The notes under the pieces: generated by a model
The model's database searches: none
What the model was told of the DNA's origin: nothing
The model's input: only the letters and a program-made list of their open reading frames with translations
Shown here: in pieces, positions 4,911-30,932 of the stretch
Layout of the letters: each line of letters starts with the position of its first letter
How positions within the stretch are numbered: the stretch's first letter is position 1
Source of the DNA: a virus
IMG/VR virus record: IMGVR_UViG_3300018080_000165
Span: 1 to 64,000 of that record
DNA length: 64,000 nt
Direction: 5' to 3' (one strand)
Translations under genes and position numbers: made by a program

Positions 4911-5393
4911 TCAAAAGTCCTTACGATCAACCTCCACGTTCTCTTCAGCAGCGAGGTTGTACAACGAGTTCAGCACGGTTTCCCAAGAAAAAATCGTCGC
5001 GTTCGCGATGCCGAACAGGTCTTTGGGTGCGTTCCACCAAAGAAAACCTTTTTGACTGGCTGACTTCACCATCTCTTTGTACCATTCCTTCACGTCTTGA
5101 AGGAAACGGTAGTGCCTGTGCCGATAATTCGTCGGCATCTCCTGTTCCAGTTCATTGAAGATGACGACCTTGCAATAGAACAGCGGGTGAATGGAACTGT
5201 TCGAAGAAGTCTTCGCGCGCACTCTCACCACATAGATGTGCATGTTGAGACGCTTGTCCCTGTCGCCGTGCTTCAACTTGACCGAGAGAAGGAGTTTCTC
5301 TCCTCCCGCGCTAGAACGCAAAAGGGCTTTTCTTTCTTTTGATGACGGCTTTTTTCTTCGGCGGTTGCTGAGTTGTTTGAACCTTCTGGCCAT
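4911..5393 (-). CDS. Hypothetical protein
   Basis: 160-aa ORF with AAGGAG RBS. Confidence 0.6.
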   Translation of the reverse strand: MARRFKQLSNRRRKKPSSKERKALLRSSAGGEKLLLSVKLKHGDRDKRLNMHIYVVRVRAKTSSNSSIHPLFYCKVVIFNELEQEMPTNYRHRHYRFLQDVKEWYKEMVKSASQKGFLWWNAPKDLFGIANATIFSWETVLNSLYNLAAEENVEVDRKDF

Positions 5394-5673
5394 GTGTCAT
5401 CTCCTTCGCGTTCGGCTTGCCCTTCACTCTCAATACAGTGAGCACAGGCTTCGGCTTCACGCACGTATCCTGTGCACACCTGTTGAGAATTTTATGGTGA
5501 TATTCCGCTTGCTCCTTCTTGGCGTACACGGCGCGCTGTTTCTTGTTTTTAACCCAAAGTATTGATCGGCCCACGAAACGCTGAAAGAAGTACACTTCCT
5601 CTTCACGTACTGTCTCCTTTTCGCCGGGCCATATCGTTCTTGTTCGAACAGACCTTATCACATAGCCGCTCAT
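5311..5673 (-). CDS. Hypothetical protein ending ...KRKKSPFAF (C-terminal FxF tag)
   Basis: AGGAGG RBS before ATG at 5673; tail overlaps the next gene by 83 nt. Confidence 0.6.
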   Translation of the reverse strand: MSGYVIRSVRTRTIWPGEKETVREEEVYFFQRFVGRSILWVKNKKQRAVYAKKEQAEYHHKILNRCAQDTCVKPKPVLTVLRVKGKPNAKEMTHGQKVQTTQQPPKKKAVIKRKKSPFAF

Positions 5674-5799
5674 TGTCAATCGTCCTCCTTGGGCCATTCT
5701 CCTTCTTCGATCCACAGGCCCACGAGTTCCGTGAAACCTGAAGCGACGATGAGAAGCCAGGAACAAAATTGAATGAACTCCGCGACAAGGTAGACGAAC

Positions 5800-6303
5800 T
5801 CAGCCAGAAGTATCCTCACCCATTGACTCCTTCAATCCTTGCTCTTCGACCCGTTTCCGCTGTTCGATCCCCGCCCGGATGGAGTTGACGAGCGTTGCGC
5901 GTGCGAACTCTGGCGGCATCTGCGAAAGCATCTTCTTTGCCAGGAACGCAGCCGCGACACCCTCTTGTTCTATCCCGTAAACGACTTTGACTCCTTCCTG
6001 AATGATCTTTCCGATGACTTGGGCGGACGTTTGCCATCCAGGCTCAATCACCATGAACCGTAGCCACATGAACTGCGCCAGTGTGGCTTCGCGTATCTTC
6101 ATGGAGAACTGGATTTCCTTCGGCTTCTTCGGATCGGCTTGATGCTGGCGCATGAAGAACGTGAACTTGTTCTGCGCATCACCCATCAGCTTGTCGATCT
6201 CGTGCATCTGCTTCTGCTCTTCATGCGTGAGATTCAAAGCCTTCTCAAATTCTTCCTCGTCCTTGTCTTTCCAGCCATGACCGGCATCGTATTCGCTGCT
6301 CAT
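5800..6303 (-). CDS. Hypothetical protein, possible ribbon-helix-helix DNA-binding domain
   Basis: IQFSMKIREATLAQF...TSAQVIGKIIQEG pattern. Confidence 0.45.
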   Translation of the reverse strand: MSSEYDAGHGWKDKDEEEFEKALNLTHEEQKQMHEIDKLMGDAQNKFTFFMRQHQADPKKPKEIQFSMKIREATLAQFMWLRFMVIEPGWQTSAQVIGKIIQEGVKVVYGIEQEGVAAAFLAKKMLSQMPPEFARATLVNSIRAGIEQRKRVEEQGLKESMGEDTSG

Positions 6304-6321
6304 TTGTCCGTTGCTCCTTTC

Positions 6322-6675
6322 TTACGTCCAAAAGTTTCCACGTAGCCTTGCTTCCGCTTGAACGGCATCCTTTGACTCCTTCAAACCGTTTCCCGTCAAC
6401 TCACGATATGCTTTGATCGTAGCGATTCTGTTGTGCACCCCGAAAGGATGGTGTTGTGTATCGAAATAAGAATACGTCCGTGCTTTGTCCACGACCTTTT
6501 CCCAACTTACCGCTTTTATTGTGATGACACCTTTTTCTAAAAGATCGACGAGTTTGTGCAGCCGACGACAGACCATCGGTTCCATCGTCTCGATTTCATC
6601 TTCTTCCTCGCACAACGCGAGTACCGTCAGCCACGACGCGGTTTCACGTAGCAGTTCCTTCGTTTCGTCGTCCAC
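6322..6675 (-). CDS. Protein with ribosomal L7/L12 C-terminal-like domain
   Basis: RIATIKAYRELTGNGLKESKDAV resembles bL12 [23 protein letters not shown]. Confidence 0.7.
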   Translation of the reverse strand: MDDETKELLRETASWLTVLALCEEEDEIETMEPMVCRRLHKLVDLLEKGVITIKAVSWEKVVDKARTYSYFDTQHHPFGVHNRIATIKAYRELTGNGLKESKDAVQAEARLRGNFWT

Positions 6676-6687
6676 GGCTTTCCTTTC

Positions 6688-6921
6688 TTAGTTGTACTGG
6701 AACATCCGCCGTTGTTCGTTCAACTCGATCACCTTGAGCATCATGCGCCCGTCTTCATCGGCGCATTCGTCCGGGTCACAAGCGGGACAACAGGGAACAT
6801 GAAGGGATTCTCCTGTGGGCACCGTGCCGTCGGGCTGTCTCACTCGTTCCATACGCCCAACTTTGCAGCCACACTGGTTACAAAACACAGGAATCGTATC
6901 CACAGGTACCTCATCACTCAA
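6688..6921 (-). CDS. Small Zn-ribbon protein
   Basis: CNQCG...CCPAC. Confidence 0.5.
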   Translation of the reverse strand: MSDEVPVDTIPVFCNQCGCKVGRMERVRQPDGTVPTGESLHVPCCPACDPDECADEDGRMMLKVIELNEQRRMFQYN

Positions 6922-7274
6922 AATGCAAACCCTTTCTGCTTTGATTTCTTTTTCACAATTTGTTCTTCCGGCATCGCATCATCGATAGCCTTTGCCATTT
7001 TTTTGACGATGACATGCCGCGCCTTGTAAATCCGTTCGATGAGTTCGGTGAGATCGTATGGAGTACCGAAGACTGTAATAGAGAAATCATCGTGAGTAAA
7101 CGCACGAGGTTCTTTTCCAGTCTTCCTTTGCTTATCCCACCTTCTCCTCACGGCCTTCGAAGCGTGCCGGAAGTCCAGTTCGAAATGCGCCAGACGATTC
7201 TCTCCCCTGGACCACACGATCACTCCAACATCCTCAAAGCCTTTTACCTTTAACTCTTTTCGCAAGCTGGGCAT
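6918..7274 (-). CDS. Hypothetical protein ending ...KKKSKQKGFAF
   Basis: 118-aa ORF coupled to the downstream gene. Confidence 0.6.
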   Translation of the reverse strand: MPSLRKELKVKGFEDVGVIVWSRGENRLAHFELDFRHASKAVRRRWDKQRKTGKEPRAFTHDDFSITVFGTPYDLTELIERIYKARHVIVKKMAKAIDDAMPEEQIVKKKSKQKGFAF

Positions 7275-7584
7275 TCGCCTTGTCCCTCGCTGCCTTGGCT
7301 TCCTTCACTGTACCGAAAACGTTTCTTTCCTCGACGATGTGCAGATTCCTGTTCCGTTCCATCAAAACGTAAGTGACGTGGTACCTTAAAAGAGCGTGCG
7401 TGATTCGCAACTCAAACACCTTTCCTCTCGCACTCACGTATTTCATATCGGCGATCAAGTGTCTCTCACCGCACTCCGAGCATGGGTGCTCTCTGATACA
7501 GCTTACCTCTTTGACAAAGTATACCGTATCGTCGAGATCGAACTTGGAAGCCATCAATTTCAATCCTTCTTCTTTTTTCACCAT
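7234..7584 (-). CDS. Hypothetical protein (SH3-like with CxxC)
   Basis: KFDLDDTVYF...CSECG...VEERNVF pattern. Confidence 0.5.
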   Translation of the reverse strand: MVKKEEGLKLMASKFDLDDTVYFVKEVSCIREHPCSECGERHLIADMKYVSARGKVFELRITHALLRYHVTYVLMERNRNLHIVEERNVFGTVKEAKAARDKANAQLAKRVKGKRL

Positions 7585-8183
7585 CAGAAAGAAAACCCTC
7601 CTTCCTTCTTCCGTTTCCTTCGCTTGGCCGATTTCACGAACTCCTTCGGCTTCACCTTCTTGTTCAGTTTCTCGACCAGCGATTCGAATTTCGGATCGTC
7701 GTCTTGCACGATTCGAAGATGGGCCAAGTACAGGAACACATGGTGAGCGGAAGGAAACATAGACACCGATTCCTCAAGAATGGCGATAGGCGCTTTCACG
7801 CAATCGTAAGGATACCTGTTCGCCCATCCCCATCCCATGCACAGTTTTTTCCGCCCGCTTTTCCCGCCCAACATTCGGCCAGCCGTCACGTCGAATGTTG
7901 ATCGATCAATGGGATATTTCTTACCGTCATCGTCGTGGATGTAGGGTTTCTTCCTGTCATGGGCGAACACTCCGGCGTAACGGTCGCCCACGATGAAAGA
8001 AAGCTGTTCACCCATGGCCGTGACAGTGCCATACTCGGTATCCCCTTTGATGTTTGATCCCGATTGCACACTACCCTTTCCGTTCGCGGCCCTCCAAGCC
8101 GTATAGATGTTGAATGTTTGGTTGTGAAATGCTCCAAGGGAGCACGCGATCTTCCCGTCTCCCCGCAGCATTACAAGGATCAT
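7584..8183 (-). CDS. Hypothetical protein ending ...KRRKRKKEGGFSF
   Basis: GAGGAGG RBS before ATG at 8183. Confidence 0.6.
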   Translation of the reverse strand: MILVMLRGDGKIACSLGAFHNQTFNIYTAWRAANGKGSVQSGSNIKGDTEYGTVTAMGEQLSFIVGDRYAGVFAHDRKKPYIHDDDGKKYPIDRSTFDVTAGRMLGGKSGRKKLCMGWGWANRYPYDCVKAPIAILEESVSMFPSAHHVFLYLAHLRIVQDDDPKFESLVEKLNKKVKPKEFVKSAKRRKRKKEGGFSF

Positions 8184-8193
8184 GTCTACCTCC

Positions 8194-8691
8194 TCAGAAG
8201 GAAAAGCCTTCCTCCTTTTTCTTTGGCAGCGTTTCTGTTTTGATCCGTTGCCAGCCCATTCTCCGCAAAGCTCCTTCAAGTTGAATCGTTTCATACCCCG
8301 CGTGCAATGCGTCTGGATCGTCGGTGAGTTCCCTGTACGCGAGATTGTCCAATACGGACTGTATCGTCTCGCACAACACTTTGTCACCGGCTTGCCTTCT
8401 CAATGCGCCGAATTTCTCCGACACTTGTTTCAAGAAAATACCTTCATCGATATTCGCTCCGGTCACGGAATAGTTGCGATGCACATAATGACGGATCAAA
8501 ACATACGCAAGCACGGCAAACGCATCAGCATCCGGCGTGATGACCTTCACCACTTCAACAGGCTGGTTCACGGGAGGCGGTACTTTCTTCTTCGTCTTCT
8601 TCTTGATGTTCTTCTTCTTGGCTTTCTTTTTCAGAACAACGTGCTCACCCCCACCAAAGTCGAATGCTGATTGATGTTTGCGCTTAGGCAT
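8194..8691 (-). CDS. Hypothetical basic protein, N-terminal SAFDF and C-terminal ...PKKKEEGFSF
   Basis: GGAGG RBS before ATG at 8691. Confidence 0.6.
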   Translation of the reverse strand: MPKRKHQSAFDFGGGEHVVLKKKAKKKNIKKKTKKKVPPPVNQPVEVVKVITPDADAFAVLAYVLIRHYVHRNYSVTGANIDEGIFLKQVSEKFGALRRQAGDKVLCETIQSVLDNLAYRELTDDPDALHAGYETIQLEGALRRMGWQRIKTETLPKKKEEGFSF

Positions 8692-8824
8692 CTGCGCTTG
8701 CCTCCGCCACTTGGTCGAACTGGATGTCACACCAAGTCAGGTTCCTCTTTATCTGACTCACGGGGGGCTGAGTGATCTTGAACCTCTTCGCTATCGTCAC
8801 TTGCAAAACTTCTCTCTTGAGTCG

Positions 8825-10402
8825 TTAGTCTGACGCGGCTTTCGCAATATCATCAAACTGGATACTCTGAGGATCGACCTTGTAGTACGATGCCGCCAGC
8901 TTTCGCAGTGGCGTATCCGCGTGTGCAATGTAGCCTTGCGGAGACACATCCAACACATGCAACCGAATGTCGTCTTTCAGTATGCCTGCCAGTTTGCTCT
9001 CGTCAACGTATGACTCGGCATCCGAGATCAAAAGGATTTCGGCTTTACCTTTTCCTTCCTTCTCCTTTTCCCGGATGTCTTCACAAGCCGCTTTCAAGGC
9101 GAGCATGATTTCGGTTCCACCCCCGTTGAAATCGGAGATGCCAACCATGCGCGCGAGATCGGCCATCGAATCGTCGTCGTCCGCGATCTTGAGCCGATCC
9201 GGCTGGCCAGCGAAGAACCGGAACAGCATGGTTCCCTGTTCCAAGCTGATCTTTTTGATGACGGACAGGCACAACGCGGAAGCGAAAGTTCCCTTCGTGT
9301 GCAAGGCGTAGACGTTCGGCGCGATCATGGAGTTCATCGAACCCGACACGTCCAGCAAGGTGTGGAAATACTGCTTCTTCTTTTGCCGTTGCATGTCCTG
9401 CCGGACTTGGAGTTCCCCCGTGACCAGCTTCTTGTCCATCATGTCATCGTCAATGACTTCACCGGGGAGCGCCTTGGGAACTTCCTCCACGGTCCTGATC
9501 TCCCTCGCGCGGAAATCGTGGGAGATGTACTCCACGTCTTCCTTCTCTTCCGATTCACCCGGCAATAAAGTTTCGTTGAACGTTCTTGCCAGTTCGAAGA
9601 TCGCAAGCTGCCTTGACGTAACATCGTCCACCATTTGCTCAAGACGCTTGACGAAAGACTCTCCCGTGAATGTGGCATCGAATTCCGGCGTTGCCTTTCC
9701 GACCTGATTCATCGGAATCATCATGTTGACCAATTCCACGGTGGCACTCTCTCCCCCGTTCTGTTCCATGTGTTCCGCGAAAGCGGCACCTTGGATCGGA
9801 TCGAGAATGACAGTGAGGATCGAGAGCGCGATCACGGCGTGAACCAAAGGATCGACGGCGGACGGAGGTTCCTTACAGTCCTTGCTCACCTTCTTGGTGT
9901 GGTCAATGGAAAACGTGTTCGGCATGTTGTGATACGACGTGTGCCCTTTGCTGAACTGCTTTCCGAACGCACAATCCTTCGCGTGATTGCACGCATTGCA
10001 CCGCGCGGGTTGAGTCTTTGCGCTCAGCTTCTTGAAGATGGCCAACAACCTCTCCACGGCATCGTAGGTGTCCTTGACTTGGCACAACTTCAGAAAGTAC
10101 GGAAGGTGTTTCAGCTTCCGAAAGAAGGAATAGTGCTTCGCCATTCGCTTGTACGCGGCAGTCCACGTCCACCCTTCGTCTTTCATCATCCGCTTGACAT
10201 TGCGCTTGGCGTTCTTCCGGGACATGAGAGCACGGCCTGTGGACTTTAGCATGAGGTACAAGTCCTGGACGAAACCCTCATCGTCGATCTGGAACTTCCG
10301 TGCGATGGCGTGAAGTTCCTTTTTCACATCGTCGTCAAGGACAGGCATCCGCGTTCGCTTCAGCCTCTTCTCCTTGTGGTAATGATAACATACCCGGATC
10401 AT
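8825..10402 (-). CDS. vWA (MIDAS) domain protein, ViaA/CoxE-like, partner of the AAA+ ATPase
   Basis: LLDVSGSM, GGGTEI, ILLISDAE; extra CNACNHAKDC insert. Confidence 0.85.
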   Translation of the reverse strand: MIRVCYHYHKEKRLKRTRMPVLDDDVKKELHAIARKFQIDDEGFVQDLYLMLKSTGRALMSRKNAKRNVKRMMKDEGWTWTAAYKRMAKHYSFFRKLKHLPYFLKLCQVKDTYDAVERLLAIFKKLSAKTQPARCNACNHAKDCAFGKQFSKGHTSYHNMPNTFSIDHTKKVSKDCKEPPSAVDPLVHAVIALSILTVILDPIQGAAFAEHMEQNGGESATVELVNMMIPMNQVGKATPEFDATFTGESFVKRLEQMVDDVTSRQLAIFELARTFNETLLPGESEEKEDVEYISHDFRAREIRTVEEVPKALPGEVIDDDMMDKKLVTGELQVRQDMQRQKKKQYFHTLLDVSGSMNSMIAPNVYALHTKGTFASALCLSVIKKISLEQGTMLFRFFAGQPDRLKIADDDDSMADLARMVGISDFNGGGTEIMLALKAACEDIREKEKEGKGKAEILLISDAESYVDESKLAGILKDDIRLHVLDVSPQGYIAHADTPLRKLAASYYKVDPQSIQFDDIAKAASD

Positions 10403-10415
10403 TTCCCCTCCTTTC

Positions 10416-11606
10416 TCAGAAAGTCGGCAAGTCTTCGGGCTTGATTCTCTTGCTGACGGCTTCCAGAAGTTTCGCGCAACGCTGCTCGACTTCAGCGAAA
10501 CCCTTCTCCACGCTGGCATCGGGATTCACAGGCACCTTCCTGTTCTTGAAGCCGCCCTTGATGGTCATCAATTCCTGATGGTACTTCACCAAAAGGTTCG
10601 CGCTCCCGGTCTTTGTCTTCGCTTCGACCTTATCGAGAACACGGGAGAACGTCTGCAACTGCTTCCGCGACTTGCTCTTCTCTTCGATGTTGCCGACGAC
10701 TTTCTGATAGACTTCCTCGAAAGCCGTTTCGTGGTCGCTGTTACCGATGAAACAGAGTCCGAAGCGGGTCGCGTGAATGTCTTGCGCTTCGGCTTCCGTT
10801 CGCCCGTCCAGGATAGCGGATGCCTGGATGAGCATGGCCGACCACACATACCGCCGAGTGGAGATGTCCTCGCCCTTCCCCAATCTCTGCCGGTAGAGTT
10901 CGAAGAGTTCGTCGTAAGCCGCGACAACATCCTCATCGACTTCGACCGTCTCCCGGAGATCGGCCAGCTTTTCGATGTCCTCGAATGAAATGGTTCCTTC
11001 GACTTCCGGCAATCCGTTTTCGAGGAACGCCGTCACAACATTAATGCGTGACGCCCCCTCTTCCAGATCGGGAACCTTGATCCGGCACAGGAAACGATCC
11101 GCGACGGCCTGCGCGTCGTTCTTGTCACGCCAGAAATTCGACGTGGCAATCGCGGTATGCAACGGAGACTGGACGGGCTTTCCGATTGAACGGGTGTACT
11201 CCCGTTCGTTCAGAACCTCGTTCATGCTCCGAATGCACGCATCGCTTGCGTCGAAATACTCTTCCAGACGCGCAAGCTGGCAGTCGGCCATCCCGCCTCT
11301 GATGTTGTACTCATACTCGCCTTCCTCCCGCCACTTCTTCACGTTCAGAGGACCAAACACCGCTTCCTCTGTCATCTGGCGGGTAAGCTGCTTGTGAAAG
11401 TACGATGCCCCTTCGATGGATTCCAAAAGGAGTTTCGCGGCAAGAGACTTCGCCGTACCGGGAGGACCAAACATGAATGCGTGCATCCGAAGGATGAGTG
11501 CATAGATGCAGGCACGTAGCGCGTCTTCCCTTTCCGCCAGCACTTCGTTAACCTCCTTTTCAATCTCCAACAGGTTCTCGACGATTTTTCTTTCGTGGTT
11601 GGTCAT
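10416..11606 (-). CDS. MoxR/RavA-family AAA+ ATPase
   Basis: Walker A GPPGTAKS, EEAVFGP, NEVLNER, ATSN, DRF motifs. Confidence 0.88.
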   Translation of the reverse strand: MTNHERKIVENLLEIEKEVNEVLAEREDALRACIYALILRMHAFMFGPPGTAKSLAAKLLLESIEGASYFHKQLTRQMTEEAVFGPLNVKKWREEGEYEYNIRGGMADCQLARLEEYFDASDACIRSMNEVLNEREYTRSIGKPVQSPLHTAIATSNFWRDKNDAQAVADRFLCRIKVPDLEEGASRINVVTAFLENGLPEVEGTISFEDIEKLADLRETVEVDEDVVAAYDELFELYRQRLGKGEDISTRRYVWSAMLIQASAILDGRTEAEAQDIHATRFGLCFIGNSDHETAFEEVYQKVVGNIEEKSKSRKQLQTFSRVLDKVEAKTKTGSANLLVKYHQELMTIKGGFKNRKVPVNPDASVEKGFAEVEQRCAKLLEAVSKRIKPEDLPTF

Positions 11607-11627
11607 AGTTCTCTCCGGTTGAAAGAA

Positions 11628-11659
11628 CGGGAGTGGGGACTTTGACATCCCCACTCCCG
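11628..11659 (-). terminator. Rho-independent terminator-like hairpin
   Basis: 12-bp perfect stem cgggagtgggga/tccccactcccg followed on the minus strand by TTCTTTC. Confidence 0.6.
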
Positions 11660-11665
11660 ACTACC

Positions 11666-11986
11666 TCAAACGAGGCTGAAGCCGTAGCGGATACGGACGG
11701 GAATCTCGTTCCCGAAAGCCCGGATGTCCTTGACGCTCTCCGGTTCGTACCCACTCAGTTCCTTCTTGACGGTATCCTCGAAAGCCCTTTTCGGGGTCGT
11801 GAAGACGTGATTGCCGCCGTCAGTAAACGAAACAACAACGGCTACCTCCTTCGCTTTCCTTCCGCGCTTGCCCTTCTTCCTTCCGTTGGCGGGCTTGCGC
11901 TTCTTGTACTTGCGCTTCTTCTTCGCGGGAACCTCTTCGTCCTCTCCGCGAGGCTTCTTCCGCTTCTTCCGTTTCTTCTTCGCCAT
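11666..11986 (-). CDS. Very basic protein (Lys-rich N-terminal half)
   Basis: MAKKKRKKRKKPRG...; ends GFSLV; GAGGAGG RBS. Confidence 0.65.
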   Translation of the reverse strand: MAKKKRKKRKKPRGEDEEVPAKKKRKYKKRKPANGRKKGKRGRKAKEVAVVVSFTDGGNHVFTTPKRAFEDTVKKELSGYEPESVKDIRAFGNEIPVRIRYGFSLV

Positions 11987-12069: not shown

Positions 12070-13416
12070 CTACCTGCGCTTCCTGGCCGTCTTCTTGCGC
12101 GGAGCCTTCGGCTTCCGCTTGGCGGCTTTTTTCACGGTCTTCTTTGCCACTTTCTTTTTCCGGCCCTTCTTTACCACCTTCTTCTTTGCCGCCTTCTTCT
12201 TCACTTTCTTCCTGCCCTTCTTGGCAGCCTTCTTGGGATCGATCTCCCTGTATGCGAAGGCCCGCTTTTTCTTCTCATCCGGCGGCACCAAGGCGAAGAC
12301 GGTTCCCGTCACCGAATCCATCGCGGCGAATTCGTCGTCCTTCATTTGGGCTTCCACGTTCGCCAGCGCATCCCCGTCGAGTTCCTTTTCGGCAGGGATC
12401 ATCACCACCCCATTGCAGAACGGCGTTGCTCGGTCGTTCTTCTCGTGCGTGATGATGTAAGGCACGTCCAGATCGGCGATCTCTCCACCGTCAGCCACGA
12501 AGAGTGACTTGAAAAGCGTGTAGGCCGTCCAGAGTTTCTTCTTCTTCAACAATGCCGGAATCTTTGCGTATTCCGGCCACTGCTTCGTGTTGCAGTGCTT
12601 GTAGTGTCTCGGTTGGAAGAAGTCCGCGAACTCCTTTTTCACCGAGGCTTGCGTTGCTTCCTTCGACTTCCTAGCTCCGGCGACGAACTCTTTGGCGACG
12701 GTCAGACGATCCGGGTTGTCTTCCTCGTCACCTTCTTCGTCGTCGGCTTCCGCTTCCTCTTCTTCTTCCTCTTCCTCTTCCTCCTCTTCTTCCTCTTCGT
12801 CAACCTCTACTTCGTCTTCCTCTCCTTCCTCTTCCTCCTCTTCGTCCTCTTCGGATTCCTCTTCCTCTTCTTCTTCCTCTTCTTCGTCCTCCTCACCTTC
12901 CTCCTCTTCCTCTTCCTCCTCCTCTTCTTCCTCTTCCTCTTCTTCGGATTCCTCTTCCTCTTCTTCTTCCTCTTCCTCGTCCTCACCGGCAGCGAGCTTT
13001 TCGCAAGCCTTCTTCACTGCGGCTTCCTTGTCCTCCAACTTCTTCCCGACCTTCACGTCGAGCAGACGGGCCGCTCGGGTCAAGGTCTTTTGGTTGGCAA
13101 CGGCGTCCTCATCGCTGCACACTGCCGCGATACCTTCCAGCGCGGCCTTGATGTCGGCGAAGGTCATGTCGCCAGGATCGACGCCGATCTTCTCACAAAG
13201 GGCCTTCAACTTCTTGCCCTTCATCTTCTTGATGAGTTTCGCGGAAGGAAGACCGATGTCGATGGTTTCCGCTTCTTCTTCTTCCTCTTCCTCGGGTTCC
13301 TCTTCCTCGGCAGGCTTCGCGGCCTTTCCACCGAGAATCTTGCCGAGTGCCGCGAAGAACTTCTCACAGAGCGCCAAGCACTTCGCGCCCTTCACAATCT
13401 TCGGACTTTTCGCCAT
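12070..13416 (-). CDS. Protein with a ~90-aa poly-Glu tract and a histone-H1-like Lys/Ala C-terminal tail
   Basis: EEEE tract at ~12720-12985; tail PKKAAKKGRKKVKKKAAKKKVVKK...; AGGAG RBS. Confidence 0.75.
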   Translation of the reverse strand: MAKSPKIVKGAKCLALCEKFFAALGKILGGKAAKPAEEEEPEEEEEEEAETIDIGLPSAKLIKKMKGKKLKALCEKIGVDPGDMTFADIKAALEGIAAVCSDEDAVANQKTLTRAARLLDVKVGKKLEDKEAAVKKACEKLAAGEDEEEEEEEEEESEEEEEEEEEEEEEEEEGEEDEEEEEEEEEESEEDEEEEEEGEEDEVEVDEEEEEEEEEEEEEEEAEADDEEGDEEDNPDRLTVAKEFVAGARKSKEATQASVKKEFADFFQPRHYKHCNTKQWPEYAKIPALLKKKKLWTAYTLFKSLFVADGGEIADLDVPYIITHEKNDRATPFCNGVVMIPAEKELDGDALANVEAQMKDDEFAAMDSVTGTVFALVPPDEKKKRAFAYREIDPKKAAKKGRKKVKKKAAKKKVVKKGRKKKVAKKTVKKAAKRKPKAPRKKTARKRR

Positions 13417-13437: not shown

Positions 13438-13773
13438 TTAGTGACGTTTTTTCACAACCCGACTCTTCCGTTTTGAACTCTGCCCGTCTACATACAATCC
13501 TCCTTTCCATGCGTCCGGGTTCCAGCGGATCACCTGAATCGGACAAGCCCCGTTCTCGAAGACGGTCGCGCGAATCCCCTTTGGGATGATCCTCTTTCCG
13601 CGCTTAATCCCCAAAAGCAAAACCAGATGCTTCGAATCGCCCTTTCCTTCTACCTCCTTTCCGCACACGTACAAGTCCCGATTCAGAAATTTTTCGTCCA
13701 GATGCTTTGCCACGATCACGCGGGTTCCTACCCGGAAGATTCTTTTCTGCCGCCGGACCAGTGCGGCGTACAT
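13438..13773 (-). CDS. Hypothetical protein
   Basis: ORF with basic C-terminus; start uncertain. Confidence 0.45.
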   Translation of the reverse strand: MYAALVRRQKRIFRVGTRVIVAKHLDEKFLNRDLYVCGKEVEGKGDSKHLVLLLGIKRGKRIIPKGIRATVFENGACPIQVIRWNPDAWKGGLYVDGQSSKRKSRVVKKRH

Positions 13774-14032
13774 ATCCACCTTGCTTTCTCCTTTCCAGGC
13801 ATTCGACGTATGCCAATGTGTCAAACGCCCCCCGGTCCACGAGGAACTTGATGTGAGAGCATATCGTGCTCTTGCACCGAGTACATGATATGCTCCCCGA
13901 TCTGTACTGCGTGATTGTGAAGTGAGACTTCTTTGTTTTGACCTTGAACGTTTTCTGGATTTGGTTGCCGGTCCTGGAGAAGTCTCCCAACATGGTGTAG
14001 CGGAACATCTTGGTCTTGTACTTGCGCCTCAT
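13604..14032 (-). CDS. SWIM-like Zn-finger protein with basic tail ending SGFAFGD
   Basis: SCTRC...ICSHI motif. Confidence 0.5.
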   Translation of the reverse strand: MRRKYKTKMFRYTMLGDFSRTGNQIQKTFKVKTKKSHFTITQYRSGSISCTRCKSTICSHIKFLVDRGAFDTLAYVECLERRKQGGYVRRTGPAAEKNLPGRNPRDRGKASGRKISESGLVRVRKGGRRKGRFEASGFAFGD

Positions 14033-14407
14033 CTATCTCGCCGACCTTCGGCCCTTCTTCTCGGCCTTCTTCTTTTTCTTCCCCCCGGTCCTGTTGGCTT
14101 CCTTCGGCACGTCACAGTCCGCCAGTTCGGCGATGTCCACCTTTCCGGCATTGATCCCTTTCAGATTGACATTCACCAAGGCGGACTTGATGGCCTTGTA
14201 GGAAGAAATGGTCAACCGGACGCCACGAGGCGAGGGTTGCCACGTCTTGTACGTCTCCGAATCCTCGCGGTTGTCGAAATACCACCGACGAATGTCGATC
14301 ATCGGCTTGCTCTTCTTGGTCTGCTGGACGACGCGAACTCGTAACTGTTCGCGCCCCAGGTCTTCCACGTACACCAGGACCGACTTGTCCGGGTCTGTTG
14401 ACACCAT
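14033..14407 (-). CDS. PC4/YdbC-like ssDNA-binding protein
   Basis: IDIRRWY...WQPSPRGVRLT signature of the PC4 family. Confidence 0.8.
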   Translation of the reverse strand: MVSTDPDKSVLVYVEDLGREQLRVRVVQQTKKSKPMIDIRRWYFDNREDSETYKTWQPSPRGVRLTISSYKAIKSALVNVNLKGINAGKVDIAELADCDVPKEANRTGGKKKKKAEKKGRRSAR

Positions 14408-14615: not shown

Positions 14616-15440
14616 TCAGAAAGCGAACGACGACTGCCGCGCTTTCTTACCTCCTTCGATCCGGGCCTTGTGCTTCTTGAAATACGCGAGAAGAGCATTT
14701 CTTCTTTCGATCTTACTCTCCCTCTTCTTGCACAAGTCGATCATCTGACTGCCTTCGAGGCGAAGAAGACCCAATTCCTTGGCGGTCTTCCGGTAGTCCA
14801 CGCCCGTCAACGCTTCCAGATAACCGAACTGGCTTTTCGTGATCTCGTTGCCAGGAACCCGATTGTATCTCCTCTTTCCCATCTTCTTCTGTTCGGACTT
14901 CGGCAGTCCGTTCTTTGTCCGTGCGTTGTCGATCATCGCGGACATCTGTTTCTTGGTATAATTGCCAACGACTGCCGTTCCGCTCAGGTCTTCGTAGTAC
15001 CTGATTTGCTTCGCCGTGGCGGGTTCGTTCTCTCTCCTTTCCTTTTCCGCCGCCAACTCCGAAGGACGCTTAGCCGTCTTCCTTCTGGCGACACCGGCCT
15101 TCCACATCTCCTTCGCCCGTTCGCGGACACGTTTCAGCACGCCAGCCCAGTTCTCCGTTCGATTGATCCGAGTGGTCTTGGCCAACGGAGCTTCCTCTTC
15201 AGGATTCTCCCACCGCCGGACAGCGACAACGCGGATCGCGTCTTCCCCTTCCCCACGAAACTTGTCGCCTTTGATGCTGGAATAGATACGCACCCAGGCG
15301 CGAGTACGTAGCTTCTTCCCGTTCTCTTGCGCGACGATCTGCCGTTCGAAGACACGTTCCCCCTTGGACTCCGTTTCGAGGAACGACATGTTCAACATCA
15401 AATGCAAGAACCTTTTCACTTTTATCGAGTCACTCGGCAT
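14616..15440 (-). CDS. Hypothetical protein with two PATxKQ-type (DUF3072-like) repeats, ending ...KKARQSSFAF
   Basis: EPATAKQIRYYEDL...TKKQMSAMID and EITKSQFGYLEAL. Confidence 0.6.
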   Translation of the reverse strand: MPSDSIKVKRFLHLMLNMSFLETESKGERVFERQIVAQENGKKLRTRAWVRIYSSIKGDKFRGEGEDAIRVVAVRRWENPEEEAPLAKTTRINRTENWAGVLKRVRERAKEMWKAGVARRKTAKRPSELAAEKERRENEPATAKQIRYYEDLSGTAVVGNYTKKQMSAMIDNARTKNGLPKSEQKKMGKRRYNRVPGNEITKSQFGYLEALTGVDYRKTAKELGLLRLEGSQMIDLCKKRESKIERRNALLAYFKKHKARIEGGKKARQSSFAF

Positions 15441-16360: not shown

Positions 16361-16690
16361 TCAAAACGCGAAAGAACCTTGCTTCGCTTTCTGGCCAACG
16401 TGCTTACCCCCACCTTTCTTCTTAGCCTTCAACTCCTTGTCCTTCCTGGCTTGCGCGGCCATCTTCGCCTTGTACGAGATTTCGTACAACTCCATCATCT
16501 CGTCCAGCTTGGACCGGACGCCTTTCGGCGTCCACTTGCCCTTGAGCCAGTACGCGCAAGCGGCGTACATGTGAGCACCCGCCTGGGTGTCGTCGGCTTT
16601 CTTGGCTTCCTTGATGGCCGTAAGACTCTCTTTCTTCTTGGCCGGTTCCTTCTCCTTGACTGCCTTCTTCACAAGCTTTTTCTTTGCCAC
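16361..16690 (-). CDS. Basic hypothetical protein ending ...KAKQGSFAF
   Basis: AAGGAG RBS, GTG start. Confidence 0.6.
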   Translation of the reverse strand: MAKKKLVKKAVKEKEPAKKKESLTAIKEAKKADDTQAGAHMYAACAYWLKGKWTPKGVRSKLDEMMELYEISYKAKMAAQARKDKELKAKKKGGGKHVGQKAKQGSFAF

Positions 16691-25136: not shown

Positions 25137-25157
25137 GACTCTCTCCTGATCTGCCGA

Positions 25158-25185
25158 AGTCTACGAGGTTTTCACCGCCTGTCAA
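25158..25185 (-). promoter_or_regulatory. Promoter TTGACA-N16-TAGACT
   Basis: Consensus -35 upstream of the resolvase RBS. Confidence 0.55.
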
Positions 25186-25233
25186 CCATTTCCTCTTCGA
25201 CTTCTCGTTGATGACTCGGCTTTCTCCGGCAAC

Positions 25234-25725
25234 TCAAGCTCGACTAGAGCGTTCATACTCGACACTCCTTCTGCTTTGATCGCGGCTCAACGCCTTGGAT
25301 TTCCGGTCGTAGTTGTCCACTCGCGTTTCAAGGGCGATTTTCATCGCCTCAAGTTCCTCGCACCTACGGACCAACTTTTGAATCTTCGGATCAAGGTCCA
25401 TCTCCGCATCCTGTTCGTACTTCTTTTTCCCTCCGCTTGCGAATCGAATCCTCGCCCTTGCCGTGCGCAAACTTCTTTGCGCACCGATCAACTGGATTCT
25501 CGTTTTGGCGAGATGATCGTTGGCATAGGCATACCACGCCACCATAGCCGTGTAAGCTCGTTGCAGCCTCTTGGGCGGCAGGCGTGTAGGGTCAATCGGC
25601 ATTTGCGCCGTGCTGTCCTTCGGCTTGTCCGTATCGACGATACCTACAGCGCGAATGCGGCGCTCCGTTTCTTCGAGGATGGTCCTTTTCTTTTTGCTTT
25701 TCGTCCCTTTGCGTTTTTTAACCAT
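25234..25725 (-). CDS. UvsY-like recombination mediator (helical)
   Basis: Helical protein, AWYAY...DPKIQKL...ALSR; next to the exonuclease in a RecA module. Confidence 0.5.
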   Translation of the reverse strand: MVKKRKGTKSKKKRTILEETERRIRAVGIVDTDKPKDSTAQMPIDPTRLPPKRLQRAYTAMVAWYAYANDHLAKTRIQLIGAQRSLRTARARIRFASGGKKKYEQDAEMDLDPKIQKLVRRCEELEAMKIALETRVDNYDRKSKALSRDQSRRSVEYERSSRA

Positions 25726-26552
25726 TTCCTTCCCTTTCTCTCATCCCAACAAATGTTGGTGTAGAAACATCCCTTGCAAGGAAAACGGTGCACAGACTCC
25801 CCTTCCCTCTTCGGCAACTTCCGGTTGTCCACGTGGTCACGGAGATAATCCAAACGCTTCTTCCGTTTCCTTTCGTCGCTCTTGTTGAACTCGAAAAACG
25901 TCTCGCGCAACGTTTGATCGTTCTTGTTCTCGTAGATGAACACGGCACGATGAATCTTCAAGTGCTTCATGTACATGTGAATCTGCTGCTTGTACCCTTC
26001 CTTCCCGTAATGCCGTCCAAGGTTCTTGAAGCCGTAGTCATTGATGGATTTGAAATCGACGATGTACTTCTTCCCCTTTAGACTCACTATGGCGTCACAG
26101 GTTCCTTGTTCATCGCCGACAGTGAAGGGAACTTCGATGTCATCTATCGTACAAAGGCCCATTCGGACGAAGAGGACTTGCATTCGCAAGTGAAGCGAAT
26201 CGCCCGTGGCAAAGATTCGCTGTGACTTGGCGATGTCCGCGATACCACCCATCGGAGGTTTGTTCTTGGGTGCGCGCATGGATTTGTAGACAGTCCTTCT
26301 AGCGCATCCCCCGATAGCGGAAGGATGATAATACTTGTCCCTGTAGTCTTTCTTCGCGGCCTTCCACTGCTTGAACTTGCGTTCGGCCAATGCCAGTTCG
26401 ATCTTTGCTTCGGCACGCCGAATGTCAACGTCCGTTATTTCCCGGCGCATGAGGGCCATCTGTTCATCGTAAAGGAAGCGATCAATGACGTTGATGAACG
26501 AGACTTTCCTCTTCTTCATCTTGTTCACGTCTTTCCACAGGTTGCGAAGCAT
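25644..26552 (-). CDS. Cas4-like/RecB-family PD-(D/E)xK exonuclease with Fe-S cysteines; ends ...KKRSAAFAL
   Basis: HPSAIGGCARR, GDSLH, GTCD, IVDFKS, QIHMYM, CKGCFYTNIC. Confidence 0.85.
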   Translation of the reverse strand: MLRNLWKDVNKMKKRKVSFINVIDRFLYDEQMALMRREITDVDIRRAEAKIELALAERKFKQWKAAKKDYRDKYYHPSAIGGCARRTVYKSMRAPKNKPPMGGIADIAKSQRIFATGDSLHLRMQVLFVRMGLCTIDDIEVPFTVGDEQGTCDAIVSLKGKKYIVDFKSINDYGFKNLGRHYGKEGYKQQIHMYMKHLKIHRAVFIYENKNDQTLRETFFEFNKSDERKRKKRLDYLRDHVDNRKLPKREGESVHRFPCKGCFYTNICWDERKGRKWLKNAKGRKAKRKGPSSKKRSAAFAL

Positions 26553-26946: not shown

Positions 26947-27056
26947 GATCGTTTCTCCTTTCGGTCAGTGAAAATGCAAACGCGGGTTCAAGGCGTCGGC
27001 TCTCCCTCTCCCCCGCGTTTGCAAGCCGCCCGTCCCAGGGGGCAGCCGTTTTCCAA

Positions 27057-27515
27057 CTAGTTACCCAATGTTTGTGCACAAAATGTACACAAATTAACCT
27101 TCTTGACGCAGCATCCATCACACACACGTTGCCCACACGAAGGGCATGTGCTCAATTCCCATGGAGGTGTAGAAGAAATACAAATAGCACAAAAATGATC
27201 GTCATCATCTAACTCATCATCTAACTCATCATCGTCTTCAACTTCTGCGTTGGCTTTTTCAATACACTCATCACAATGCCCATCACACTCGTTGTCGCAG
27301 CCACAAACGGTGTCAAAACAATCAGAACAAATAGGCTTTTTCTCAGTTTCCATTTCAATGAAAAACACACAAAACGGACACGTATTCTGTCCGCACACAC
27401 AACACTTACGGAGTTCTGTGCCCGCCCTTCCGCAAACACCGCATTTGCAACTATCGGGCATTCGCTCTCCGGTTAATCCGTCTTCGATCATTCCGTGTCC
27501 CTTTCGCGTTCGCAC
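27057..27515 (-). CDS. Tandem Cys-rich Zn-finger (B-box/FYVE-like) protein, AT-rich gene
   Basis: Two CxxC...CxxC...CxxC...CxxC units separated by an acidic linker. Confidence 0.6.
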   Translation of the reverse strand: MRTRKGHGMIEDGLTGERMPDSCKCGVCGRAGTELRKCCVCGQNTCPFCVFFIEMETEKKPICSDCFDTVCGCDNECDGHCDECIEKANAEVEDDDELDDELDDDDHFCAICISSTPPWELSTCPSCGQRVCDGCCVKKVNLCTFCAQTLGN

Positions 27516-27732
27516 TTCTTGAAACCGGACGAAGATTCGATGAAGCGTTTTTGCTTGTCGGCCCGCCCTGAATGTTGTGGTTCTTCTTGTCCCGCGTCAC
27601 GGGCTTGACATGGCCAACAAGTTTTCCCGTCCCGCGTAACTTGTCCCGCATCTTTGCCATGTTCGCCCATCTTCCGTCCTTCCAGTTCGATCCCGCCTTT
27701 CCCTTCTTGCTCCCTGAACCTTTGCCGCCCAC
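27451..27732 (-). CDS. Small basic HNH-like protein
   Basis: GHVKP...NASSNLRPVSRSAN; AAGGAGG RBS before GTG. Confidence 0.45.
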   Translation of the reverse strand: MGGKGSGSKKGKAGSNWKDGRWANMAKMRDKLRGTGKLVGHVKPVTRDKKNHNIQGGPTSKNASSNLRPVSRSANAKGTRNDRRRINRRANAR

Positions 27733-27734
27733 TG

Positions 27735-28311
27735 TTACGCCCTCCTTTTTCTCTGCTTCGTAAGCCAGCCCCAAGATCGACCAAGTTTGATGTCTGTAAT
27801 CGTAACTTGATGAACACCAAACTTCCTAGAGATTTCAGTTGGGCCTTCACCTTGCGCTAACAATCGACAGATACGGCGCACATCTCTTTCCTTCAACTTA
27901 GCCCCGTTTTGCTTCGATCCTTGAACATGCGTTCCGTGCCGCTTTTTGTCAGCTATGTTTTCTTTCTTAGTCCCCCAAACCAAATTGCCGATCCTGTTAT
28001 TGGCCGGGTTCCCGTCCAGATGACGGCATTCCATGCCTTCAGGACACGGGCCGACGAAAGCAAGAAGCACAAGACGGCAAACCTTGAAGTTGAACGACTT
28101 GTTGCTAAGGCTAAACGTAATGATCGGTCTTCCGTTTTCCGAGATGTTGTGCGGGCGTATCCTGGCCGTCTGGCCGATGAAGTGTCTAAAGCCACGACAC
28201 GCCCCCTCTTGTTTTTCGCGCCCAAAAAGAACGCACACGTCCCTGGTCGGAGACTTCATATCCTTCCCATCCGGGAATGGGCTTCCAGATTTCTCTCTTC
28301 CGCCCGCCCAT
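27735..28311 (-). pseudogene. NUMOD4-HNH homing endonuclease split by a +1 frameshift
   Basis: 28311-28186 encodes EIWKPIPGWEGYEVSDQGRVRS...L*; HNH (HLDGNPANNRIGNL) lies in the +1 frame to 27735. Confidence 0.75.
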
Positions 28312-28322
28312 CGCTCTCCTCC

Positions 28323-28553
28323 TCAATCTCCGTTCACTGCTTCAAACTTGAACACTTCCCCCGGCAAAAAGTTCTTGGCTTCTTCCTTGGGCACGAATAT
28401 ACGAAGCTTTCCATCGTCCACGTCTACACAGTTTTCCTTTCCATCCTGTGTGTATCGCAAACACGCGGAAAACAACACACTGTAAGCGTTATCGGCCATA
28501 CTTTCTCTTGCGATGCCTTCCACACGCAAATCAACTTCCTTTAATATCAACAT
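28323..28553 (-). CDS. Small hypothetical protein
   Basis: AAGGAG RBS. Confidence 0.5.
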   Translation of the reverse strand: MLILKEVDLRVEGIARESMADNAYSVLFSACLRYTQDGKENCVDVDDGKLRIFVPKEEAKNFLPGEVFKFEAVNGD

Positions 28554-28863
28554 TTTTTTCTCCTTTCAGGAACTCGACAAGATCGGGATTGAAAACGGCA
28601 AACACATCATCCTCTTCTTTCATAACTTCGACAACTTCTTCGACAGTAGGCGTAGGGCGTTCTCCGCATGAGTACCTTGCATCCATCACGTAACGCTTCG
28701 CTTCCACTTCCCGCAACTTCGTAAAGAGAGGATGATTCCGAACAAACTTATCCGCTTCGTTCTTGCAAGGACAACAAATATATGCCGTGATTCCTCCTCG
28801 AAACTTTGTCATTTCCCTGCCGAAAAGACCGGCTGCTCTTCCACATCGCTCACACTTGTTCAT
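28531..28863 (-). CDS. Zn-finger hypothetical protein
   Basis: CERCG...ICCPC. Confidence 0.55.
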   Translation of the reverse strand: MNKCERCGRAAGLFGREMTKFRGGITAYICCPCKNEADKFVRNHPLFTKLREVEAKRYVMDARYSCGERPTPTVEEVVEVMKEEDDVFAVFNPDLVEFLKGEKNVDIKGS

Positions 28864-28864
28864 C

Positions 28865-29020
28865 TCAAATCTCCTTCCCTCTCAGCGCCCGGTACTTCTC
28901 CAAAGCTTCCTCTTTTGAAGCACAGCTTTTCAACTCCAAGTACCATTCCCTAGGCAGCTTCTTCCCGTGGACTTTCTTAACTGCGCGAAGGATTTTCTTT
29001 TCCTCCTTGTACCGGGCCAT
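28865..29020 (-). CDS. 51-aa protein downstream of hicA (absent from the ORF track); possible antitoxin
   Basis: AAGGAG RBS; MARYKEEKKILRAVKKVHGKKLPREWYLELKSCASKEEALEKYRALRGKEI. Confidence 0.45.
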   Translation of the reverse strand: MARYKEEKKILRAVKKVHGKKLPREWYLELKSCASKEEALEKYRALRGKEI

Positions 29021-29207
29021 GTAGGTTTCTCCTTATCGCCCTCTTTGCCTTGTGCTCGATTCCCGGTGACGCTTCCGTGTGCGCGCCACTGAGAGGGATG
29101 TTCACTATCTCGCCGTTTGGCATCCGGTAAATCTTGTGACTCCCCTTGCTACGTAGGAACTTTCCCCCTTCACTCTCCACTAATCTGATTAAGGCTTTTG
29201 TCTTCAT
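28977..29207 (-). CDS. hicA: HicA-family mRNA interferase
   Basis: LIRLVESEGGKFLRSKGSHKIY...VNIP...H; HicA GSH motif. Confidence 0.8.
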   Translation of the reverse strand: MKTKALIRLVESEGGKFLRSKGSHKIYRMPNGEIVNIPLSGAHTEASPGIEHKAKRAIRRNLHGPVQGGKENPSRS

Positions 29208-29388
29208 CGAGTTTGTCTCCAAAGGCCAATACGAACGCCCCGATCAACGCAGACGCTTCTTTTGAATTAATGGGGCGGTTTTCTCCGCTTACCCCGAACC
29301 AGGTTTCTCCGGTTGTGTCTCGGGAAACAGTTAGAGACGGACCTTTCCGCAAGTGCACATTAATTTCAAGATCGATCTCAGGCATCAC
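29170..29388 (-). CDS. Small hypothetical protein
   Basis: GGAGG RBS. Confidence 0.45.
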   Translation of the reverse strand: MMPEIDLEINVHLRKGPSLTVSRDTTGETWFGVSGENRPINSKEASALIGAFVLAFGDKLDEDKSLNQISGE

Positions 29389-29505
29389 TCATCCTCCACA
29401 AAGTGATAGTCGAACGTTGATTCCGCCAGGACATACACGCGCATGTCCTCAATCCCTAAGCTGTTTGCCACACTGTTCCACAATGTATCTTACTCACCCT
29501 CTCTT

Positions 29506-29823
29506 TCATTCTCTAAGTCTCCTTTCTATCGCATCTCGGACAAAATCAAAAGTTGTCTCGGTCAAAATATAAACATTCACATCTTGAATTTGAATCTCCA
29601 TGAGCGGTTCCAATCCTTCTTTAGCCGCCCGTTCAATGATCTTCTCGATGTCAGCCTTCTTCAAGATGATTTGTTTCTTGTCCGTCCTCTTACATTCCGC
29701 AAGCCACTGCGGACCTTTCACATCCCCTTTGTTGCGCCATCCGCATCCCGATCCCGGCTGGACACGCCCGTTCAACTTCTCAGCCAAGCGTTTCTCTTGT
29801 TGATCCGATTTCAGCCGCTTCAT
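29506..29823 (-). CDS. Holliday-junction-resolvase-like PD-(D/E)xK nuclease
   Basis: QEKRLA...QPGSG...KGDV...LAECK. Confidence 0.75.
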   Translation of the reverse strand: MKRLKSDQQEKRLAEKLNGRVQPGSGCGWRNKGDVKGPQWLAECKRTDKKQIILKKADIEKIIERAAKEGLEPLMEIQIQDVNVYILTETTFDFVRDAIERRLRE

Positions 29824-30932
29824 AGCGCGAACGCCTTTCTGTTCTTCTTCTGCCGCTTTTTCGCTTTATCCCCGGTGCGCTTCAGTTGGAGTTTTCCTTT
29901 GTGTACCTTCATCACATCGTTGTACAAGTCCTGCAAGACGTACTTGTCCATGTAGATTTTCTTGCAGAACTTCTCTCTCCCGTTGGCCTTGATCCCCTGA
30001 TAGGAGTAGGCGTGTCCCTTCTTTCGGACAATCCCGTATACCACGGCCATGGGAAGAAGGTCAAGCGCATTGTCGATGGTTCCCCCTTCCCGGTATCCAT
30101 ATGCCCGATTGTAGAAGTTGAAGAATCCCCGTTCGTTCGCGTTGCCGCCGGTCTTGTTCTTCACAACGACGAATCCCACCGTTGTTCCCACGGCCTGTTT
30201 CAACGTCTCCCCGCTTTCCTTGATTTCCTCATAGATGTAGCCTTTGCGGTACAGCTTCACGCAGACAGATGCCGCGTGTTCAAGCGCCTTTCCCCCCGGT
30301 GCCGTTTCAGGATCGCCGAACATCACGCCGATTTGAACACGGACTTGATTCAACAAAAGGATGGTCGATTTCGGCGTAGAAGAAAGCAAATCCTTCTTCA
30401 ATCGCGGAATCAGCTTACGCAGCATCTTGGACACGAAACGCGGGTGCATCCCGACACTGCTTTTCTCCATCTTCTTCTCGACTTCGAAGTGCGGTGTGAT
30501 AGCACCGATGGAATCGAAGATCACCAAGACTTGATCCCCCTCGTCCAACACATCGCAAACGATGTCCACGGACTGTTCGCTTGTCGTCGGCGACACGAGA
30601 AGGAACTTGTTCGGATCGGCGTCGAGGAACTTCAACCACTTCACATCGAAAGCGTTCTCCACATCGATGTAGACAACGTACCGCTTCTTAGGCTCTTTCT
30701 TGATGAACTTCGTGGCTCCGCAAATAGCGAGCGTGCTTTTATACGCGCTGTAGTGTCCTATGACTTCGTTTATCCGGCCTTCCACGAAGCCCCCGCCTAG
30801 AGCAATATCAAGGGAATGGCTCCCTGTGCTGAAACGCTTGATCGTCAATCCAAGTGCATCGCTGGCACGGACGATTGTTCCCCTACCGTAGCGTTTATTT
30901 ATGCGGTTCATCACAGTCTCTATCGACATCAC
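29820..30932 (-). CDS. recA: RecA/UvsX recombinase; ends ...KKRQKKNRKAFAL
   Basis: STGSHSLDIALGGG, GHYSAYKST, IDVENAFD, DSIGA, LNQVR, GDPETAPGGKALEH, VKNK. Confidence 0.93.
   Translation of the reverse strand: MMSIETVMNRINKRYGRGTIVRASDALGLTIKRFSTGSHSLDIALGGGFVEGRINEVIGHYSAYKSTLAICGATKFIKKEPKKRYVVYIDVENAFDVKWLKFLDADPNKFLLVSPTTSEQSVDIVCDVLDEGDQVLVIFDSIGAITPHFEVEKKMEKSSVGMHPRFVSKMLRKLIPRLKKDLLSSTPKSTILLLNQVRVQIGVMFGDPETAPGGKALEHAASVCVKLYRKGYIYEEIKESGETLKQAVGTTVGFVVVKNKTGGNANERGFFNFYNRAYGYREGGTIDNALDLLPMAVVYGIVRKKGHAYSYQGIKANGREKFCKKIYMDKYVLQDLYNDVMKVHKGKLQLKRTGDKAKKRQKKNRKAFAL

Follow-up and report, generated by a model that had tools for sequence, protein, structure and literature searches.

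The first 64 kb of IMG/VR virus record IMGVR_UViG_3300018080_000165 (64,000 nt, hereafter the window) encode at least eight unrelated proteins that share a C-terminal tail, with the consensus [K/R patch]-(0–3 residues)-[GSAP]-F-[AS]-[FL]-COOH. The complete record is 76,077 bp long, with an estimated completeness of 79%, and the carriers comprise a RecA-type recombinase, a Cas4-like nuclease and six proteins without an assigned function. We favour, tentatively and at a little less than even confidence, the reading that the tail is a lineage-specific address label which directs these proteins to one protein partner, most likely the pair formed by a MoxR-type AAA+ ATPase and a von Willebrand factor A (vWA) protein. 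An original prediction, made from the sequence alone, had quoted eight such endings and two near variants (SGFAFGD at 13604 and GFSLV at 11666); all eight were found at the respective stop codons on the minus strand, and both variants are likewise present. The genes are as follows, each ending being given up to the stop codon.

5311–5766, minus strand: tagged orphan ending KRKKSPFAF; likely start at 5673 behind AAGGAGG (120 amino acids)
6918–7274, minus strand: tagged orphan of 118 amino acids ending KKKSKQKGFAF
7584–8183, minus strand: tagged orphan of 199 amino acids ending KRRKRKKEGGFSF; the reading frame is open to 8387, with the start at 8183
8194–8730, minus strand: tagged orphan with a K-rich N-terminus, ending PKKKEEGFSF
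14616–15440, minus strand: tagged protein of 274 amino acids ending GGKKARQSSFAF; the N-terminal domain falls into an uncharacterised family that is widespread in phages
16361–16690, minus strand: tagged K-rich protein of 109 amino acids ending QKAKQGSFAF
25644–26552, minus strand: Cas4-like (PD-(D/E)xK) exonuclease ending KKRSAAFAL (phrog_1706, E = 1e-30)
29820–30932, minus strand: RecA/UvsX-type recombinase ending KKNRKAFAL (PF00154, E = 1e-49)
13604–14032, minus strand: near variant, a SWIM-like zinc-finger protein ending RRKGRFEASGFAFGD (the tag plus Gly-Asp)
11666–11986, minus strand: weak variant with a poly-K N-terminus, ending RIRYGFSLV

The genes at 8194–8730 and 16361–16690 are masked by longest-ORF (open reading frame) tiling but are real, since in both cases the stop codon is followed by a ribosome-binding signal and then by the ATG of the next gene (GGAGG and the start of the 7584 gene after 8194, AAGGAG after 16361). 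Pfam and PHROG searches of the tagged orphans returned no match, an Atlas search with the 7584 protein gave no credible matches, and a profile of the family of the 274-residue protein found no PDB match and only stray families in Pfam. The near variant at 13604–14032 carries a SWIM-like Cys-x2-Cys..Cys-x-His finger, and its SGFAFGD end places an extra carboxylate-bearing residue after the tag.

The frequency of the tip is far above chance. Residue frequencies over a 105-gene set predict 0.075 occurrences, close to the 0.06 estimated previously with assumed frequencies, and eight were observed (Poisson P(≥8) = 2.4e-14), so that the enrichment proposed at the outset is upheld. F-[AS]-[FL]-stop ends eight of the 115 minus-strand ORFs of at least 100 amino acids and none of the 121 on the plus strand. 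As a background, 206 unrelated phage and metagenome-assembled genome loci were examined, and the same tip was present on only two of their 4432 ORFs, neither of which has a basic patch. When the motif was relaxed to [FY][AST][FLY] behind at least four K/R, only six internal sites were detected in the whole proteome, among them the Exo-I motif of the polymerase and the 13604 variant, which stops two residues short of the end. With the tail numbered so that the first Phe stands at −2, the small residue at −3 and Phe or Leu at the last position, all eight tails have A or S at −1 and one of G, S, A and P at −3, and their flanks carry three to eight K/R. All carriers lie in the half of the record with the early, replication and recombination genes; as had been claimed, structural proteins lack the tag, with no example in the structural half and none beyond 31 kb of the 76-kb record. 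A scan of IMG/VR for the pattern KKxGFAF-TGA gave 19 single matches, a chance-like result, and no second contig with several tails.

The motif is conserved as protein and not as a DNA repeat, a point on which the earlier analysis was correct. The tip codons vary synonymously at all three positions (TTT/TTC; GCA/GCG/GCT/TCC/TCT; TTT/TTC/CTG/CTA), the 21 nt upstream of the tips have a mean identity of only 43%, and the bodies of the tagged proteins show no mutual BLAST similarity (best E = 0.08). The gene junctions also differ: two of the eight have overlapping stop and start codons, three have a separate ribosome-binding site after the stop, the gene at 25644 has no close downstream neighbour, and for 5311 and 6918 the next start is uncertain. 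Given the synonymous tip codons, the unrelated bodies and the differing junctions, selection acts on the peptide and not on the DNA. The endings might nevertheless be a by-product of junction signals, in which purine-rich Lys, Arg and Gly codons double as the Shine-Dalgarno sequence of the next gene and stop codons overlap starts. Such an arrangement is visible at 7584, where the next gene starts with an ATG that the TGA overlaps and that the codons AAG GAA GGA GGG precede by 12 nt, and at 29820, where CTA TGA overlaps an ATG. The genes following 8194, 14616 and 16361, however, have their own GGAGG or AAGGAG after the stop, no gene lies close behind 25644, the Phe-x-Phe tip plays no role in signals of this kind, and the RecA orthologues described below retain the tip with other codons and residues. 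This explanation is regarded as extremely unlikely, and both a DNA repeat and a by-product of ribosome-binding sites were rejected on the grounds of codon variation, unrelated upstream DNA and differing junctions.

Orthologues give a divided picture of whether the tag is kept. Only two close relatives of the RecA protein were detected among 5.8 billion proteins, with 60% and 53% identity, and these end in ..KKVSKKKPDTEVAYSF (AYSF) and ..KRKKETADYTF. Both therefore place a basic patch and an aromatic-[ST]-Phe tip (Y-S-F and Y-T-F) at the extreme end, while the remainder of the tail is unalignable. Four orthologues of the Cas4-like protein (40–49% identity) all have basic tails, with ends of ..KKTSAF in one, ..RISLL in another and K or E in the other two, so that the tag in its xAF form is kept in only one of the four; in more distant Cas4 relatives the tail is absent. 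The tip is thus maintained on RecA and dispensable on Cas4. The 274-residue protein matched 48 representatives, one of which was the query, and the tail is absent from all 47 others. As homologues outside the lineage lack it, the tail is best seen as an add-on, and the comparisons indicate a lineage-specific addition to unrelated proteins.

The basic patch raises the question of whether the tail is simply a physicochemical anchor on a polyanion, such as an anionic membrane, DNA or single-stranded DNA, or a condensate scaffolded by two proteins of the phage that are rich in Glu and Asp. These are listed here for context only.

12070–13416, minus strand: protein of 448 amino acids with poly-Glu tracts of about 100 residues and a poly-Lys tail
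33997–35067, minus strand: protein of 356 amino acids with a poly-Asp/Glu tract of about 100 residues and poly-Lys segments

The first of them could serve the basic patches as a polyanionic partner, and the presence of two proteins that combine acidic tracts of this length with poly-K segments is in keeping with an anchor, as are the DNA-handling enzymes in the tagged set and the basic N- or C-terminal runs that are widespread among the replication proteins of this phage. Membrane anchors of comparable character include the MARCKS effector domain and the tails of MinD and FtsA, and FSF in a K-rich context resembles the membrane-binding segment of MARCKS. An anchor would leave unexplained the exact C-terminal position beside a negatively charged carboxylate, the A or S at −1 and the small residue at −3. 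Many basic tails in the proteome also lack the tip, which must therefore be a separate, selected feature. An anchor is accordingly judged unlikely. Runs of poly-Lys are unusually common in the proteome as a whole, and many proteins of the replication module carry a poly-Lys/Arg run at their N- or C-terminus (for example 1740–2177, 11666–11986, 33242–33670 and 37479–38855).

A host AAA+ unfoldase or protease (ClpXP, Lon, FtsH or a ClpB-like protein) could instead recognise the tail as a degron or engagement tag, so that early proteins would be removed or remodelled at a set time. Peptides with basic and aromatic residues are favoured by AAA+ pore loops, and the carriers are early or middle gene products rather than virion parts. 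The format is also like that of the MuA degron, CILEQNRRKKAI, in which a basic run precedes a short non-polar C-terminus (PMC12723719). Against this, programmed destruction is not an obvious fate for RecA or for a recombination nuclease, and the F-[AS]-[FL] tip is unlike LAA and KKAI, which makes a degron quite improbable.

A sliding clamp was another hub put forward in the original prediction, the tail then being a tether to the host beta clamp or to a clamp of the phage. There is a precedent in phage T4, where unrelated proteins share a hydrophobic C-terminal clamp epitope (PMC2988020), and the hexameric clamp-binding motif ends in hydrophobic-x-[F/L], and is often C-terminal with its carboxylate bound (PMC11139829). 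The canonical beta-clamp motif, however, is Q-aliphatic-x-[L/M]-(x)-[F/L] with mostly acidic flanks (PMC11139829). Four to five residues from the end, where Q-aliphatic would be expected, all eight tails carry K, R, G, S, A or P instead, and while the last F or L fits, position −2 is F and not L/M, and the flanks are strongly basic. The PolA-type polymerase, the primase and the helicase are untagged, and neither PF02916 nor PF00712 (gp45-type and beta-type clamps) gave a match at E ≤ 1 in the 76-kb record, which is 79% complete. With the motif positions unoccupied and no clamp gene found in that record, a clamp-binding motif is considered very unlikely.

The leading candidate lies within the cluster of tagged genes, where a MoxR gene is adjacent to a vWA gene.

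10416–11654, minus strand: MoxR-type AAA+ ATPase, candidate reader or motor (PF20030 bpMoxR, E = 1.4e-28; phrog_19600)
8825–10402, minus strand: vWA protein of 525 amino acids, candidate reader, with a helical N-terminal part and a vWA domain
6322–6675, minus strand: small protein of 117 amino acids in the tagged cluster, with a ribosomal L12 C-terminal/ClpS-like match (PF00542, 25.7 bits against a cut-off of 25.9); context only

Just downstream of the MoxR and vWA genes, four tagged genes (5311, 6918, 7584 and 8194) lie within 4 kb, and just upstream of MoxR the near variants 11666 and 13604, followed by the tagged genes 14616 and 16361, lie within 5 kb. The MoxR protein also matched AAA_5 (E = 1.4e-16) and AAA_lid_8, has the P-loop GPPGTAKS and ends in KPEDLPTF. 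This P-loop is of the GxxxTAKS type described for beta-propeller/FtsH-type systems (Kaur et al. 2020, PMC7159879), although no beta-propeller or peptidase domain was found in the vWA protein. Inserts of the L12/ClpS type have been reported in the vWA components of the same MoxR-vWA class (Kaur et al. 2020, PMC7159879). [quoted passage not shown] Pfam vWA matches on their own were below the cut-off. An AlphaFold model built from the orthologue alignment (predicted local distance difference test score, pLDDT, 66.5) comprises a helical N-terminal part and a vWA domain, and a Foldseek search with this model returned Rea1-MIDAS as the top PDB match (E = 1.7e-5), together with many other vWA domains including that of NorQD; at the level of the predicted structure, the vWA fold is confirmed. 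A complex prediction with the vWA protein (six-row alignment), MoxR, Mg and the last 40 residues of the 6918 protein scored 0.00 against a mark of 0.32, and was not used either way.

The MoxR protein has an ending of its own that recurs elsewhere in the window. Its terminus, ..RIKPEDLPTF, and that of a 273-residue protein (36654–37475, minus strand; ..AKKPDDVAPF) whose gene sits between the primase and DnaB genes conform to K-P-[ED]-D-[LV]-x-x-F-COOH, and these endings resemble the SSB tip and the acidic tails of T7. Genes with a terminal Phe number 13 of 105, compared with 4.6 expected.

Because of the gene neighbourhood and the conserved MIDAS, the MoxR-vWA pair is ranked as the most likely reader of the tail. 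That a protein reads the tail at all, and which protein this would be, is our inference. The exact terminal position, the alternating pattern and the retention of the tip in RecA orthologues while the linker drifts would be expected of a groove that requires a free carboxylate, and the steric constraint at −1 and −3 suggests a binding groove rather than a generic sticky tail. On the address-label reading, at least eight unrelated proteins with early, replication or recombination roles would each have acquired the tail on their own; its small-aromatic-small-aromatic tip and free carboxylate would dock on one common protein, in a groove with two pockets, with electrostatic steering by the flexible basic patch. 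More specifically, the MoxR-vWA pair may be a tag-reading machine in which the MIDAS metal or the MoxR ring captures the Phe-x-Phe-COOH of RecA, the Cas4-like nuclease and six or more orphans, and the ATPase then loads, remodels or releases them, but in this detailed form the proposal is rather doubtful. The carboxylate at the end of the tail could serve the MIDAS metal as a sixth ligand; alternatively, the hydrophobic C-terminus could be held by the MoxR ring, in the way that the C-terminus of NorD is held by NorQ, after which the ATPase would remodel, assemble or release its clients. In machines of the MoxR-vWA type, the sixth ligand of the MIDAS comes from the target protein, and NorD requires its last two residues for binding to the NorQ (MoxR) ring (PMC13036017). 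For the vWA domains of MoxR conflict systems, a capture of extended peptides has been proposed (PMC7159879).

Several observations weigh against a MoxR-vWA address label. The RecA and Cas4 genes are 14–19 kb from the MoxR-vWA pair. Classical MIDAS ligation is by the side chain of Asp or Glu and does not involve a chain terminus. Three of the four Cas4 orthologues are without the aromatic-x-hydrophobic tip while their lineage keeps the vWA gene, from which it follows that the tag is dispensable on at least this protein. At least four K/R also occur at residues −4 to −15 in 24 of the 97 untagged proteins, and as so many untagged proteins have basic tails too, the basic patch is not specific to the tag. 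Taken together with the evidence above, the original prediction of a short-linear-motif system of the phage is supported in part, in that the motif is selected at the peptide level, anchored at the terminus, confined to non-structural carriers, far above chance and partly retained in orthologues. The MoxR/vWA pair, which it had named among the possible hubs, is a legitimate candidate, lying inside the tagged cluster with an intact and conserved MIDAS.

Nearly all genes of the window are carried by the minus strand. Annotated replication genes comprise a PolA-type polymerase, a primase, a DnaB-like helicase, a DnaC-like loader and an SF2 helicase, and further annotated genes include a UDG-family protein in addition to RecA, the Cas4-like nuclease and the MoxR AAA+/vWA pair. 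Proteins identical to those of this phage are also encoded on eight or nine other contigs, the longest of which is 96 kb, and the approximately 20 kb of phage genome outside the record could hold more tagged genes or a different hub. Sequencing runs containing the stretch were DNA only, from sediment and seawater metagenomes, and no RNA runs were listed. Related genomes were sought by INPHARED megablast, with the RecA protein and a RecA alignment against viral contigs and metagenome contigs, with the Cas4 alignment against viral and genome contigs, with the vWA alignment against viral contigs and by tblastn of MoxR against phage records, and in each case returned only relatives of at most 36% identity, or none. 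Copies retrieved by cluster look-ups were all identical or near-identical, and so provided no microdiversity for gauging selection.

Other features of the window concern neighbouring genes. An Atlas search weakly linked the C-terminal domain of the acidic protein at 33997–35067 to a viral family of gp32-like type, a lead that was not confirmed: phmmer against PDB and the Pfam gp32 and SSB models were all without a match, and a single-sequence AlphaFold model of the domain (pLDDT 38.6) was unusable. A small protein of 124 amino acids (14033–14407, minus strand) shows a PC4/Whirly-type single-stranded DNA-binding match below the cut-off (PF02229, E = 2e-4), and has a poly-Lys tail without the Phe tip. 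A 7-deazaguanine pathway is also encoded, including a queuine-tRNA-ribosyltransferase (DpdA/TGT-like) gene that is present in two pieces on the minus strand, 3159–4442 and 446–1516, which cover positions 8–297 and 353–479 of PHROG 887, respectively. Between them are an endonuclease gene (phrog_452, 1740–2177) and three small ORFs, and the DpdA-like gene has been either split or invaded.

Shared terminal docking peptides wire many proteins to one hub in T4 and T7, and to our knowledge very few such terminal docking codes have been described. As one label is carried by a recombinase, a nuclease and six proteins of no assigned function, the identity of its reader would give all of them a common pathway. 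If the MoxR-vWA pair is indeed the reader, this would be an undescribed client-addressing system and would for the first time define the clients and the recognition code of a very widespread and poorly understood class of chaperones; the tag is, moreover, short and portable.

Among known systems, the acidic, Phe-ending tails of T7 (gp2.5 and gp4, docking on gp5/thioredoxin) and the SSB tip DDDIPF use a terminal Phe and free carboxylate as a docking handle. They share the terminal Phe and a flexible charged tail with the proteins described here, but the charge is opposite. Class II PDZ ligands have the form hydrophobic-x-hydrophobic-COOH and require a free terminus, as in DegS and Tsp-type recognition, a format to which F-[AS]-[FL]-stop conforms in all eight tails. 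The bacterial PDZ readers known are periplasmic, however, while the tagged proteins are cytoplasmic enzymes. A PDZ reader was rejected, as the best match to PF13180 in the record (9.5 bits, E = 0.095) was below the cut-off. The FxSxx-COOH peptide system of vWA-MoxR loci (Kaur et al. 2020, PMC7159879) was rejected as well: in place of its F at −5 and S at −3, the tails have Phe at −2, Phe or Leu at the last position and a small residue at −3, and while FxSxx-COOH systems use a small precursor that is cleaved by a neighbouring zincin peptidase (PMC7159879), the carriers here are full-size enzymes (RecA, Cas4), and neither the vWA protein nor its neighbours showed an HExxH peptidase.

ClpX reads the basic C-terminus of MuA, ..NRRKKAI-COOH, which is known as C-motif 2 (PMC12723719). 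Its basic run and short non-polar end resemble the present tails, although the class is defined by degradation assays rather than a sequence profile and the MuA tip is K-A-I as compared with aromatic-small-aromatic here. The tails of the T4 family (gp43, gp55 and gp33, binding gp45, and the 11-mer of the RB69 polymerase, binding its clamp) are likewise carried by unrelated proteins and provide one interchangeable hydrophobic end for a single hub (PMC2988020). They are hydrophobic and acidic, whereas those described here are hydrophobic and basic, and the present tagged set is without a polymerase, with no clamp gene found. The claim that such a tag was undescribed therefore needs qualification: the principle is known from the T4 clamp tails, the acidic Phe tails of T7 and the C-terminal degrons of ClpX, while this particular tail and a possible MoxR-vWA reader appear to be undescribed. 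No paper was found in the literature on this tail or on a tag-reading MoxR-vWA pair of a phage. We know of no MoxR-vWA system for which a set of clients with one C-terminal tail in common has been described. The arrangement of an adjacent MoxR gene and a vWA gene with a complete MIDAS is itself the same as in NorQ-NorD, Rea1-MIDAS with Rsa4/Ytm1, CbbQ-CbbO, RavA-ViaA, the beta-propeller/FtsH-type ternary systems of Kaur et al. 2020 and the tail-assembly pair of ATV.

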